Shown here: in pieces, positions 33,332 through 38,284 of the stretch
How positions within the stretch are numbered: the first letter of the stretch is position 1
Layout of the letters: each line of letters opens with the position of its first letter
Source of the DNA: a virus
Strand: one strand, 5' to 3'
Virus record (IMG/VR): IMGVR_UViG_3300000277_000007
Coordinates: 1 to 38,284 of that record
DNA length: 38,284 bases
Made by a program: the position numbers and the translations under genes
Notes under the pieces: model-generated
Database searches by the model: none
What the model was told of the DNA's origin: nothing
Seen by the model: the letters and a program-made list of their open reading frames with translations, nothing else

Positions 33332-33454
33332 ATGGACGAGAACACCGTCATGACACCTGAAATGACACCGCAGGGCGACAGTCTGCCGCCCGAGAGCATT
33401 CAGGTCGTGTCCGAGGAGGATGCGGCCAAGGCCGTGGAAGGATTGGAGGACTAG
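33332..33454 (+). CDS. Small acidic protein (40 aa)
   Basis: GGAAGGAGGAAACACC RBS. Confidence 0.45.
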   Translation: MDENTVMTPEMTPQGDSLPPESIQVVSEEDAAKAVEGLED

Positions 33455-33458
33455 CAGC

Positions 33459-34253
33459 ATGGCAAGCGTCAGCGTTTTGATTAATCGCATGCGCTACTGG
33501 TGCGCGTCTGCGAATATGGGCTATTCGCAGACGGACCGCTGGAACTTCAACCCCTCGGGGGGTAATTGCGATTGTTCCAGTCTGGTGATCCACTGTCTCA
33601 AGGAGGCTGGATTCGATACCGGTTCGGCCACCTACACCGGCAATCTGAGCGGCAATCTGACTCGTCGCGGTTGGACTCGTCTGCCCGCGAACGGCAATCC
33701 GCAGGCTGGTGACATCCTGCTTAACGACGTGCACCACGTGGCCGTGTATCTGGGTGGCGGCAAGCTCGCGCAGGCAAGCATCTCGGAGCGTGGCACCGCA
33801 TACGGCAGGGCGGGCGACCAGACGGGCCGCGAAACCAATATCAGGGGCTACTACAGCTACCCATGGAACTGCTATCTGCGATACGGCGGCAACGCGGGTT
33901 CCACCGCATCCACCGGCGCTCTCGCAGTGGATGGCAATGTCGGCCCGGCCACCGTGCGCCGTTGGCAGCAGGTGATGGGCACTACGGTGGATGGCATCAT
34001 CAGCGGTCAGCAGGTGCCTGACGGCAGGACCTACGCGCGTCCCGCAATCGATTCGAGCGTGGTCCGCTATGGCAATGGCGGCAGTGATCTGATCCGCGCC
34101 GTGCAACGTCGCCTGGGCTGTGGCACTGATGGTCTGCTCGGACCGGCCACCATTCGCGCCATCCAAGCGCATTACGGTCTGGCTCAGGACGCGAGCTTCG
34201 GCCCCGCCACCGCACGCGCCCTGCAGTCGGCGCTCAACCAAGGACGATTCTAA
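33459..34253 (+). CDS. Endolysin: CHAP/NlpC-P60-type Cys-His peptidase plus two PG_binding_1 repeats
   Basis: NCDCSSLV ... DILLNDVHHVAVY. VDGNVGPATVRRWQQVMG and TDGLLGPATIRAIQAHYG. Confidence 0.8.
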   Translation: MASVSVLINRMRYWCASANMGYSQTDRWNFNPSGGNCDCSSLVIHCLKEAGFDTGSATYTGNLSGNLTRRGWTRLPANGNPQAGDILLNDVHHVAVYLGGGKLAQASISERGTAYGRAGDQTGRETNIRGYYSYPWNCYLRYGGNAGSTASTGALAVDGNVGPATVRRWQQVMGTTVDGIISGQQVPDGRTYARPAIDSSVVRYGNGGSDLIRAVQRRLGCGTDGLLGPATIRAIQAHYGLAQDASFGPATARALQSALNQGRF

Positions 34254-34544: not shown

Positions 34545-34650
34545 TTTTCTAGCGTGAGACTCAAACTCGCGCCAGAAACTCGACCTCGCGTGGAAGAAAA
34601 TTCACGCATTCGGGTGCTTGTGGAAATTCTTGCACCCTGTTTTTAAATCT

Positions 34651-34685
34651 GCCCCTTCTCCATTTGGAGGAGGGGCTTTATTTTT
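34651..34685 (+). terminator. Rho-independent terminator GCCCCTTCTCC-loop-GGAGGAGGGGC TTTATTTTT
   Basis: Read directly. Confidence 0.7.
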
Positions 34686-34697
34686 AGGACTTTTCTA

Positions 34698-35524
34698 ATG
34701 GGCATCAGACAGCAGACGATTGACGATTACGGTGCGTTCGTGGAGAAATTCAAGCCGAAGAAGACCACGGACGACTGCTACACCCCCCCGAAGTATATGA
34801 GGCGATAAAGGACTGGGCATGCCGTGAGTATGGCATCGACCCCAGTAAGGTGGTGCGACCCTTCTATCCGGGCGGCGACTACGAGAGTTTCGACTATTCG
34901 GACGGCAAGGTGGTGGTGGATAATCCGCCGTTCTCGATTCTGTCGAAGATATGCACGTTCTATCGTGACCGTGGTATTCCGTTCTTCCTGTTCGCGCCGA
35001 ACCTCACGATTTTCAGCAGCACGTCGCGCAACGGCGCGCATATGCTGGTCACTGATTGCGCGATCGAATACGCCAACGGCGCCATCGTCAACACCAGCTT
35101 CGTGACGAGTTTCGGCGATGATCTGATTCGCACCGCGCCGGATCTGACGAAGCTGGTCAACGATGCGGTGAAACGAGTCAGGCGCGAAAGCAGGAAACAT
35201 CTGCCGAAGTATGCGTATCCGCCGGAATTGTTGACCGTCACGCGCCTGAACAAGGTCGGCAAGGCTGGCGTGGATTTTCGTGTCAAGGCTTCGGACGTGG
35301 CATTCACGCCTAGGCTCGCTTCGCAGAATGCCGTGAAGAAGGCCATCTTCGGCGGCGGCTATCTGATGAGCGAAGCCAAGGCTGCGGAACTGAAGGCTGC
35401 GGAACTGAAGGCCGCGGAACTAAAGGCCGCAGAACTAAAGGCCGCAGAAGACGTGACAGTCTGGCCTCTCTCCGAAACCGAAAGGCGGATCATCGAAAAC
35501 CTCGCGCAAGAATCGCGCGGTTGA
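34698..35524 (+). CDS. Phage Dam-type N6-adenine DNA methyltransferase, interrupted by a frameshift in a C7 homopolymer (34783-34789): frame 0 from 34698 to 34808, then frame +2 from 34850
   Basis: Joined translation reads ...KTTDDCYTPPEVYEAIKDWACREYGIDPSKVVRPFYPGG ... VVVDNPPFSIL ... AIFGGGY. One extra C restores the frame. Confidence 0.6.
35378..35449 (+). repeat. In-frame 15-bp tandem repeat, about 4.8 copies, (KAAEL)n
   Basis: aaggctgcggaactg x2, aaggccgcggaacta, aaggccgcagaacta, aaggccgcagaa. Confidence 0.8.
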
Positions 35525-35561
35525 ATTCCTGTTGGAATATTTTGCACCCACATGCAACATC

Positions 35562-35608
35562 GCCCCTCTCTCAGCTCTTAAGCTGGGGGAGGGGCTTTTC
35601 GTGTTTTC
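35562..35608 (+). terminator. Terminator GCCCCTCTCTC ... GGGGGAGGGGCTTTTCGTGTTTT (paralogue of 34651)
   Basis: Read directly. Confidence 0.6.
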
Positions 35609-35623
35609 AGGTAGAATCTTCGT

Positions 35624-36325
35624 ATGCTCAGAATCGATGAACGTGAACTCAAGGCGAAACTCAACGAGCATAAAAGCTTGATCGGATGGGGCTCGGTTGG
35701 TGACGGAATCGGCAATCTCGTCGCCGGAGTGTTCTATATATTTACCGTCCGGACGACTTCTGGACTGCGGCAGCCGACACAATGGACTCTTTATGGCCTA
35801 GGCGCTATCATCATTGTTATCGGCGTGGCCGCGTTGTTCTCCAAGAGACTCAGTGCCGCGAAGCTCTACAAGGAAATCGAGACGATGAACAGACGGCCAA
35901 GCTCTCTTATCGCTGTCAGGGATGGCGGGAAACTGTCCAACAGGTATCTAACCTACTATGACGAGCCTTGGGGATGCTGGTTTTTGCCGAATCACAGGTC
36001 GTGCGACTCGTATCCAGAGGACAAGGCCAGAATGTCTGAATACCTTTCCACTGAATTCAAGATACCGGAAGACGATTTCACCCTTGGTTTTCTTGGAACC
36101 ACTACGAGCACGAAATGGTCCACGGCGCATAATGAGGAACGCACTTATGATTACCGGCTGTATATGGCGAAGGTGTCCGTCCTTCCCGCGGATTGGCGGT
36201 TGGATGGCGAGTTCATCGTCGGTTCGAAGCGTTGCCGTTGGATGACTTTGGATGATATGCGGAACGACCCGAAGATTTACGAGATCAACTTCGATGTCAT
36301 TCAGATGCTCGGCGATCGCATCTGA
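35624..36325 (+). CDS. Low-GC accessory protein: N-terminal 2TM plus an about 150-aa C-terminal domain of unknown function
   Basis: TM segments IGNLVAGVFYIFTV and WTLYGLGAIIIVIGVAALF. Composition well below the genome average. Confidence 0.6.
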   Translation: MLRIDERELKAKLNEHKSLIGWGSVGDGIGNLVAGVFYIFTVRTTSGLRQPTQWTLYGLGAIIIVIGVAALFSKRLSAAKLYKEIETMNRRPSSLIAVRDGGKLSNRYLTYYDEPWGCWFLPNHRSCDSYPEDKARMSEYLSTEFKIPEDDFTLGFLGTTTSTKWSTAHNEERTYDYRLYMAKVSVLPADWRLDGEFIVGSKRCRWMTLDDMRNDPKIYEINFDVIQMLGDRI

Positions 36326-36385
36326 TTTGACTGGATGGTTTTAGGGTCTTCGCCTGGAATGTTTTCTGGGTGAAGACCCTTTTCG

Positions 36386-37046: not shown

Positions 37047-38216
37047 ATGGCCTACACGATCCGCCAATACCAGACGAAAAGCGGAAAAAGATACGAAGTC
37101 AGATACCGTAAGCCGGACGGCACGGACACCGGCAAACGCGGCTTCAAACGCAAAATGGACGCCGATGCCTGGGGCGCAGCGAACGTGACCACAGCTAAAA
37201 GCGTCGGAGCGTACATCGACCCACAAGCCGGAAGACGCTTGGTCGAAGACTTCTGGGAGCCATGGCTGGCCGCAAAAAAGACCAAGGCCAAACCAAGCTA
37301 CATCAAGTCATTGGAGGATGCTTGGCGCGCGCATGTCATGCCTCAATGGGGAGTACGCGAAGTCCAGTCCATCACAAGGGACGAGGTGCAGCGGTGGGTC
37401 ACCGATCTGGCAGGACGACGCAGTGCGTCAGTGACCATCCGTGCTGAAAACCTCCTGCGCAGTCTCATGGAGAGGGCAAAGGCCGATCGGTGCATCCACG
37501 ACAATCCATGCGACGGCATCGAGCTGCCGCGCAAGCAGGTGCGGAAGCATGTCTATCTGTCGGCCGATGAATTGTCTCGTGTGGCGATGCAGTGCGGGTG
37601 GCGTGAGCCGATCGTGCTGACCTTGGGCCTGTGCGGCATGAGGTGGGGCGAGCTCGTGGCGCTCCGTGTCGAGGATGTCGATCTGCAACGCTGTCGACTG
37701 CATATATATAGGAGCATCACGCGTCTTTCCAGCAGGATGGTGGAGACCGACCCGAAGACCCATGATGGACGCTCGGTGATGTTCCCCCTGGTGTTGCGTC
37801 CGCTGCTCGCCAAGCAATGCGAGGGGCGCGAGCCGTCCGATTTTCTTTTCACCGCTCCCGGCGAGCCTCTGGACGAACCGATGGGCAACGGCTGGAATCC
37901 GACGCGGCACGATGGGTGGTTCGCGGTGGCGCTTCGCCGCGCGGGCGTGGAGCGTGGCCACATGACGATTCACGATCTGCGGCATACCGCCGCTTCGCTC
38001 ATGGTGCAGTCCGGCGCTAATGTCAAGACCGTGCAAAGGCAATTGGGGCACAAGTCCGCCGCCATGACGCTCGACGTGTATGCCGACCTTTTCGACGATG
38101 ATCTGGACGATTTGTCGGAGAGAATGGGCGGTTTGCTCTTTTCGCAGGATGTGGGCAAAATGTGGGCAAAAGCGACGCAAGGCATTGATGGAACCGTTGA
38201 AACGGCAAGTGTCTGA
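37047..38216 (+). CDS. int: Tyrosine integrase
   Basis: LRHTAASLMVQSGANVKTVQRQLGHKSAAMTLDVYADL (R ... HxxR ... Y). Adjacent to att. Confidence 0.9.
   Translation: MAYTIRQYQTKSGKRYEVRYRKPDGTDTGKRGFKRKMDADAWGAANVTTAKSVGAYIDPQAGRRLVEDFWEPWLAAKKTKAKPSYIKSLEDAWRAHVMPQWGVREVQSITRDEVQRWVTDLAGRRSASVTIRAENLLRSLMERAKADRCIHDNPCDGIELPRKQVRKHVYLSADELSRVAMQCGWREPIVLTLGLCGMRWGELVALRVEDVDLQRCRLHIYRSITRLSSRMVETDPKTHDGRSVMFPLVLRPLLAKQCEGREPSDFLFTAPGEPLDEPMGNGWNPTRHDGWFAVALRRAGVERGHMTIHDLRHTAASLMVQSGANVKTVQRQLGHKSAAMTLDVYADLFDDDLDDLSERMGGLLFSQDVGKMWAKATQGIDGTVETASV
38151..38168. promoter_or_regulatory. Candidate integrase arm-type site (second copy), inside the int 3' coding end
   Basis: Identical 18-mer to 111-128. 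Confidence 0.45.
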
Positions 38217-38227
38217 AGCTTTTCTCC

Positions 38228-38253
38228 TGTGGGTTCGAGTCCCGCTGGAGGCA
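38228..38253 (+). other. tRNA 3'-end-like segment (T-arm GTGGG-TTCGAGT-CCCGC plus acceptor strand TGGAGGC-A) abutting the att core; phage-borne attP copy of the target tRNA 3' half
   Basis: Canonical T-loop TTCGAGT flanked by a 5-bp complementary stem and followed by a 7-nt acceptor strand plus discriminator. No matching 5' acceptor strand is found upstream inside the phage. Confidence 0.55.
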
Positions 38254-38284
38254 CTTTTGGAAACCGCCAGAGATGGCGGTTTTC
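38251..38284. repeat. Right copy of 34-bp terminal direct repeat (att core / attR)
   Basis: Identical to 1-34. Immediately preceded by a tRNA 3'-half-like sequence and lies downstream of the integrase. Confidence 0.85.

Follow-up and report, generated by a model that had tools for sequence, protein, structure and literature searches.

The temperate-phage genome of IMG/VR record IMGVR_UViG_3300000277_000007 (positions 1 to 38,284, analysed over its full 38,284 nucleotides and referred to below as the window) carries a probable methyltransferase gene at 34698-35524 that is split by a run of seven C residues. Comparison with the natural alleles of this gene suggests that the run is probably a hypermutable contingency tract that toggles an orphan phage methyltransferase, and that the copy in the window is OFF. 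The sequences compared show the features expected of a simple-sequence contingency locus: the homopolymer is intragenic and 5'-proximal, it changes by one unit in both directions on identical backgrounds, the ON/OFF state lacks phylogenetic inertia, the OFF alleles are intact, the interrupted alleles do not shift and seem 'locked', and the arrangement recurs in lineages that have different in-frame lengths.

The gene starts with an ATG at 34698, 8 nucleotides downstream of a Shine-Dalgarno-like AGGA that was read from the sequence (34686-34689, plus strand, as are all features below unless stated otherwise). The upstream open reading frame (ORF) of the split gene (34698-34808) comprises codons 1-31, which represent the true N-terminus, followed by five out-of-frame codons and a TAA at 34806-34808. 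The OFF-state product is a peptide of 36 amino acids, MGIRQQTIDDYGAFVEKFKPKKTTDDCYTPP followed by KYMRR. The tract itself (34783-34789; C7 and out of frame) lies 85 nucleotides into the gene and occupies codons 29-31 of 275. The remainder of the gene is found in the +2 frame (34790-35524), which is fully open and contains codons 32-275 of the restored protein and the stop codon at 35522-35524; read from the tract onward it gives PPEVYEAIKDW...VVVDNPPFSIL...AIFGGGY. Addition of one C (C8) results in a single ORF of 275 amino acids. A C5 tract would likewise be in frame but at the cost of Pro31, and it was seen in no natural allele. A preliminary description of the DNA, made from its letters, had reported the split at C7, the stop in frame 0, the open +2 frame and the restoration of a single ORF by C8, and all of these statements hold.

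That the two frames are parts of a single gene is supported by the match of the joined protein to PHROG 21498 (function unknown), which runs from end to end (E = 4e-86). The part downstream of the tract is 96% identical to an intact homologue (P0001). There are more than 8000 homologues, and the close intact ones have a length of 260-275 amino acids, upstream segment included; the family consists of 1,723 clusters at 50% identity. Conservation in the N-terminal part of the family is highest in T-T-D-D-C-Y-T-P (T23-T24-D25-D26-C27-Y28-T29-P30; 34764-34787), a block of (near-)invariant columns in alignments A1, A2 and A3; it is encoded upstream of the tract, and its codons end within the tract. 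The D-N-P-P-F sequence that represents the catalytic motif IV of the amino-methyltransferases (GAT AAT CCG CCG TTC; 34919-34933) lies downstream. A frameshift at the tract thus separates two essential parts of the protein. The alignment of homologues revealed that the upstream frame is conserved, which disposes of the case, considered beforehand as a possible refutation, that homologues simply start near 34850.

To obtain an overview of the natural alleles, 87 related loci were fetched from genomes and IMG/VR on basis of peptide patterns. Since these patterns lie downstream of the tract, the sampling is blind to its state. Among the loci, 62 close alleles constitute lineage A, in which the in-frame length is C8. 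An in-frame A+C8 was found in 26 of these alleles, C7 in 17 and C9 in 8; two others had C6, or C7 where the context needs C9, and the remaining nine carried an interrupted tract that is in frame (ACCCACCCC, ACACCCCCC, ACTCCACCC and others). Altogether, 27 of the 62 alleles (44%) were out of frame, and in every one of these 27 the downstream frame is open over 217-255 codons. The longest C run is six or less in eight of the nine interrupted alleles, none of which eight is out of frame; of the alleles that keep a long uninterrupted run 27 out of 54 are. In distant relatives the T-P-P is encoded by ACG CCG CCG, in frame.

A second, independent set was collected by scanning metagenome contigs for the motif followed by at least C6, and contained 120 loci, mostly from Illumina/SPAdes assemblies of the human gut. 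Here, around 37% of the 75 alleles of lineage A were OFF (C7 16, C9 9, C6 2 and other 1). Lineage B, at 47-50% identity and located in loci with a guanine-plus-cytosine (GC) content of 45-51%, has C7 as its in-frame length, and 35% of its 17 alleles were OFF (C8 4, C9 1 and C6 1). Most of the metagenome OFF alleles that could be read to the stop codon have 185-201 codons between DNPPF and stop, like the ON alleles; a few are shorter (L178, L161, L197 and L091), and so are some ON alleles. Both ON and OFF alleles were encountered on chromosomal contigs of more than 100 kb, which implies that the gene resides in integrated prophages in those relatives. The qualification 'prophage-borne' in the preliminary description is therefore supported for relatives, ON as well as OFF, but not for the window itself, a phage genome that is complete and has a terminal repeat of 34 nucleotides. 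Long runs were also found in further lineages of the family. A 44%-identical homologue in a phage of 54% GC (L085/L089, IMGVR_UViG_3300045988_087156; L085:4183-4200) has C13 at the T-P-P codons, which is out of frame and would be in frame at C11 or C14, and the C11 of L174 (66% GC) and the C9 of L134 (45% GC) are both out of frame as well. At the motif, runs of at least C10 were recovered from IMG/VR only in the C13 contig, apart from two unrelated chance matches.

The tract changes length on backgrounds that are otherwise the same. Genes that are 100% identical over the 644 nucleotides outside the tract were found with C7 (L059), C8 (L024 and L025) and C9 (L056 and L057), and the same identity outside the tract was observed between L016 (C8) and L047 (C9). 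The phages L017 and L047 are at least 99.9% identical over 9.4 kb and the tract is their only indel. The expected variation of the homopolymer among natural alleles is therewith borne out, in both directions and on identical haplotypes. On a neighbour-joining tree of the gene the ON/OFF state requires at least 18 changes, versus a mean of 20.4 for shuffled states, and is thus without phylogenetic inertia. Taken together, the identical backgrounds and the tree imply that the state changes much faster than the surrounding sequence. As a rough estimate (at least two tract changes versus no substitutions in 644 sites), the rate of change of the tract may be around three orders of magnitude above the rate per site.

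The OFF alleles can be traced in the public annotation too. The RefSeq protein WP_368108929.1 (P0074) of Bifidobacterium adolescentis is a C9 off-frame fusion. In the public annotation of C9/C10 alleles an upstream alternative frame ('...RTTATPPP') is fused to the body of the methyltransferase and the result is named 'hypothetical protein', whereas the C7 alleles appear as N-terminally truncated proteins (MYETIKDW..., MRDWAC..., MVRPFYPGG...); besides P0074, this concerns P0038, P0044, P0059, P0069 and P0075. The products of ON and OFF alleles share one cluster at 90%. The family is hidden in this way, since gene callers and RefSeq turn its OFF alleles into 'hypothetical proteins' that look truncated or chimeric.

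Considering the fact that homopolymers are classic sites of indel errors, the C7 of the window could in principle be a miscounted C8 that arose in sequencing or assembly. In the related loci every long G/C run varies, which fits such an error. However, a Logan contig from run ERR3986640, which was assembled independently, is 100% identical over 6.4 kb, C7 included, and the gene caller split the gene on this contig into products of 36 and 224 amino acids; moreover, two samples are on record for the contig. Alleles with C7 and with C9 were met repeatedly, in IMG/VR, in the metagenomes of ENA/JGI, in Logan and in RefSeq isolates, OFF alleles are found on contigs with a coverage of 143x and 282x, and G/C runs of six are stable in the related loci. 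We therefore consider an error of this kind very improbable.

Recoding would provide another way around the split, by which the full-length protein is produced from the C7 allele via programmed -1 ribosomal frameshifting on C_CCC_CCG or via transcriptional slippage. Read in the 0 frame, the sequence has the form of an X_XXY_YYZ heptamer, and slippage by -1 yields exactly the protein encoded by C8. The proline tRNA is slippage-prone on C runs, and a low-level leakiness of the run is plausible. That the split is bridged in this manner is nevertheless hardly credible: there is no stimulatory structure in the 91 nucleotides downstream (z = +0.16), most homologues are in frame, the distant relatives with ACG CCG CCG lack a slippery site, and C7 and C9 need opposite shifts, which no single programmed signal explains.

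The main rival explanation is a non-adaptive hotspot, in which the run arose accidentally from the GC-rich T-P-P codons and the OFF alleles represent recurrent loss-of-function in a dispensable accessory gene, without any selected, reversible switching. A number of observations speak for it and count against a selected switch. The C7 run by itself is not beyond chance: the window contains one C7/G7 run where 5.07 are expected on basis of dinucleotide-preserving shuffles, and the phage is thus, if anything, depleted in such runs. Within lineage A the synonymous positions of the tract are no more conserved than those of its neighbours, and selection to keep the tract is therefore not demonstrated within this lineage. 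The nine 'locked-ON' interrupted alleles indicate that the tract is not obligatory. A stable long G/C run in an essential gene, sought as a negative control, was not present in the related loci; every G/C run of seven or more in these loci varies, which fits real slippage but also a systematic homopolymer artefact. The case for a switch is further limited in that the tract lengths were compared between assembled sequences, that the metagenome set, with its minimum of C6, gives frequencies only among alleles that have a tract, and that a promoter scan found no sigma-70-like site between the terminator upstream of the gene and its ATG.

Despite these points, a mere hotspot is unlikely. Around 55 OFF alleles were recovered over the two data sets, almost without secondary damage, and with an ON fraction of around 60% in each set no drift to loss was seen. 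The states are scattered over the tree and occur in both directions on identical haplotypes. A lineage of 48% identity, from a host of lower GC content, has the same arrangement with another in-frame length, and elsewhere it is found as C9, C11 and C13. Finally, the tract is built of disfavoured codons in a phage that otherwise avoids G/C homopolymers: CCC accounts for 13.7% of the proline codons in 13 phage genes, the probability of ACC CCC CCC given T-P-P is around 0.009, and CCC-CCC is used in none of the six other Pro-Pro pairs.

The gene very probably encodes a DNA amino-methyltransferase of the uncharacterized family PHROG 21498, most likely acting on the N6 position of adenine. The layout of a TP followed by NPPF that had been put forward in the preliminary description is present, with the TP in the T-T-D-D-C-Y-T-P block and the DNPPF behind the predicted strand VVV(D). 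Among 66 members with 38-52% identity, D75, N76, F79 and S80 are invariant, and P77 and P78 nearly so. In the AlphaFold model (mean predicted local distance difference test score, pLDDT, of 78, and 80-96 in the core) the strand at 72-75 is followed by a helix at 79-91, and the predicted fold is that of a Rossmann-like class-I methyltransferase. A loop behind a short strand, R54-P55-F56-x-P58-G-G60-D61, is conserved as well and is a candidate for the glycine-rich motif I that binds S-adenosylmethionine, although it is not the canonical FxGxG motif. The nearest neighbours among predicted viral structures are small phage proteins named DNA N-6-adenine-methyltransferase; a Foldseek search of the PDB gave T4 Dam as its weak best match and nothing of significance. 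Longer members of the family have an N-terminal ParB_N domain, and the combination of ParB_N with a methyltransferase occurs in DNA methyltransferases of phages and plasmids.

The searches with sequence profiles were less informative. Scans of the restored protein against Pfam, NCBIfam and PADLOC gave no methyltransferase match, searches of the PDB sequences with profiles of two family alignments gave no match, and in the phage GenBank collection only one weak, unannotated DNA match was found. Neither the restored protein nor any of 66 diverse relatives matched PF05869 or PF02086 at E <= 1. The only recurrent weak Pfam match is EcoRI_methylase (PF13651), which was obtained for five of the 66 relatives (best E = 0.004), in all cases below the Pfam threshold, and not for the protein of the window itself; one relative matched N6_Mtase. 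The label 'Dam-type' thus does not stand for membership in PF05869 or PF02086, although the layout is like that of small phage adenine methyltransferases. On the strength of the predicted fold, the motif and the architecture, the protein is very probably a DNA adenine methyltransferase, though not a demonstrable member of a Dam family. Alternatively, its substrate could be RNA or protein, or it could have a Rossmann fold but be inactive, in which case the tract would toggle some other function; this appears improbable.

The C-terminal region of the methyltransferase contains a second length-variable element within the gene, a 15-bp tandem repeat of 4.8 copies that encodes (AAELK)n (35378-35449). 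Its copy number shifts in frame among relatives, giving proteins of 260, 265, 270, 275 and 280 amino acids, and two 99.7%-identical phages (L038 and L045) differ by one unit.

In this temperate Bifidobacterium phage the gene constitutes a terminator-bounded cassette between the lysis and xis/int modules. The genome in the window is complete and has an exact terminal direct repeat of 34 nucleotides (1-34 and 38251-38284). It starts with genes for an exonuclease, a Bro/ANT antirepressor and YqaJ/RecT, followed by the structural genes, and ends with the endolysin (33420-34253), a small holin-like ORF, a terminator, the methyltransferase gene, a second terminator, a gene for a protein of 233 amino acids, xis and the integrase. 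The Xis-like DNA-binding protein is encoded on the minus strand, and the tyrosine integrase at 37047-38216. At the right end (around 38225-38255) the 3' part of a tRNA gene (T-arm and acceptor, GGTTCGAGTCCCGCTGGAGGCA) lies beside the integrase gene; ARAGORN detected no complete tRNA. The terminal repeat and the partial tRNA together point to a tRNA-type attachment site and a complete phage genome that is either circular or bounded by attachment sites. The hosts of close relatives are Bifidobacterium, namely B. ruminantium (L001) and B. adolescentis (WP_368108929.1).

On its upstream side the cassette is bounded by a strong intrinsic-terminator-like hairpin followed by a T run (34651-34676; 11-bp stem with 8 GC pairs), located 21 nucleotides 5' of the start codon, in a region that folds at -40 kcal/mol (z = -2.9). 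A similar hairpin closes the cassette (35562-35595; 15-bp stem with 10 GC pairs). Both flanking intergenic regions (34618-34650 and 35530-35560) contain a similar 'TTGCACCC' element just 5' of the GC-rich terminator hairpins (GCCCCTTCTCC.../GCCCCTCTCTC...). These elements could mark the ends of the cassette as a repeat with a role in regulation or recombination. The cassette shows 100% identity between phages that have only around 90% identity in its flanks. In most of the related phages the methyltransferase gene has the holin-like gene as its direct neighbour on one side and xis/int on the other. The gene that intervenes in the window (35624-36325, 233 amino acids) has a TAGAAT sequence 9 nucleotides 5' of its ATG and a terminator of its own (36343-36380). 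Checked as a possible partner of the methyltransferase, it gave no match in Pfam, PHROG or PADLOC and was absent from 61 of 61 related loci; among the phages sampled only this one has it, which makes it a variable cargo (moron) gene. No restriction enzyme or defence protein is recognizable among the neighbouring genes, and the designation 'orphan' therefore stands as far as it is testable.

The relatives carry a second hypervariable homopolymer. Near the 3' end of a cassette that resembles a tail-fibre or receptor-binding gene ('...AALGGGLPGFFTGDTMPRD*'), a poly-G of 7-11 residues occurs in L045 (3178-3198) and also in L009, L010, L019, L026, L037, L038, L040, L044 and L063. A second flank variant, ATAAAGCCGT-Gn-CTTCCGGGCT, was found in 12 further loci. 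Only G9 keeps the C-terminal motif that is common to the paralogous downstream cassettes, and the near-identical L038 and L045 differ in having G7 and G9, respectively. This tract resembles the poly-G tracts in the receptor-binding genes of Campylobacter phages.

If the poly-C is indeed a contingency tract of the methyltransferase, as we favour, the following mechanism is the most likely. The run that encodes the T-P-P of the most conserved N-terminal motif would act as a hypermutable simple-sequence tract, which would gain or lose single C's by slipped-strand mispairing when the phage or prophage DNA is replicated. The gene would thereby toggle between C8, in frame and ON, and C7, C9 or C6, out of frame and OFF, where the OFF alleles would part the essential N-terminal motif from the catalytic body. 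We infer that the switching would be fast and reversible within a clone, and that the switch would be maintained because the phage or lysogen benefits from having its DNA methylated at one time and unmethylated at another. Methylation would guard the DNA against classical restriction and may alter host gene expression; at the same time it may be costly to lysogens or expose the DNA to methyl-dependent restriction. A tentative extension, which we regard as no more than possible, is that temperate gut phages of Bifidobacterium and at least one lower-GC host group hedge their bets via the poly-C methyltransferase and, in many relatives, via the poly-G receptor-binding cassette. Mixed methylated and unmethylated populations could then cross both classical and methyl-dependent restriction, and the system might amount to a phage-borne 'phasevarion' that acts on the methylome and the gene expression of a commensal host.

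Should the proposed switch be real, the biology of contingency loci would be extended to the phages of gut commensals, and this in a common family of temperate gut phages with around 40% of the natural alleles OFF, and in more than one lineage. It would also offer a testable handle on the trade-off, for a phage, between protection from restriction and the cost of methylation, and it would bear on the differing methylomes of closely related Bifidobacterium strains and on their varying transformation and phage susceptibility.

Phage orphan methyltransferases are common and are usually viewed as constitutive anti-restriction tools. Methyltransferases that are switched by a repeat are familiar from textbooks as a tool of host-adapted pathogens, with the Type III mod 'phasevarions' of Haemophilus, Neisseria, Moraxella and Streptococcus suis and the Type IIG cj0031 of Campylobacter as examples. 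Phase-variable methyltransferases of Type III, Type I and Type IIG systems, encoded on the chromosomes of pathogens, have been described (PMC5909438, PMC13076061, PMC11868660). The gene described here shares with the phasevarion genes the 5'-proximal position of the repeat within the methyltransferase ORF, changes in its length, probably by slippage, that toggle the frame, and the natural coexistence of ON and OFF alleles. Whereas the phasevarion genes are chromosomal and belong to restriction-modification systems of host-adapted pathogens, this gene is found in a temperate phage of a gut commensal actinobacterium, without a recognizable restriction partner, and is part of a small unannotated family. 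Our literature search, which did not cover subscription journals, recovered no repeat-switched phage orphan methyltransferase, of the adenine type or otherwise, nor this particular Bifidobacterium phage gene.

With the phage orphan adenine methyltransferases the protein has in common a small NPP(Y/F) fold without an endonuclease, and these are its closest viral structural neighbours; unlike them, it has no sequence membership in PF05869 or PF02086. That a phage enzyme of this sort can affect its host is illustrated by PamA, a prophage methyltransferase of Staphylococcus aureus that alters host gene expression (PMC13076061). The likeness to the M.EcoRI-type gamma-class adenine methyltransferases (PF13651) concerns the NPPF and the order of an N-terminal block, a putative S-adenosylmethionine loop, NPPF and a C-terminal variable region; a paired EcoRI-type endonuclease is absent here. 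With respect to the switch itself, the nearest parallel on a phage genome is provided by the Campylobacter phages, for which hypermutable poly-G tracts in receptor-binding genes have been reported (Sorensen et al. 2021, Cell Rep 35:109214, as cited in PMC10877375). In both cases a homopolymer contingency tract would reside on the phage genome itself, and in the Campylobacter phages it is associated, according to that account, with phenotypically mixed phage populations. As described there, those phages are virulent and the tracts are located in receptor-binding genes, whereas in the present case the phage is temperate and the candidate switch lies in a methyltransferase.

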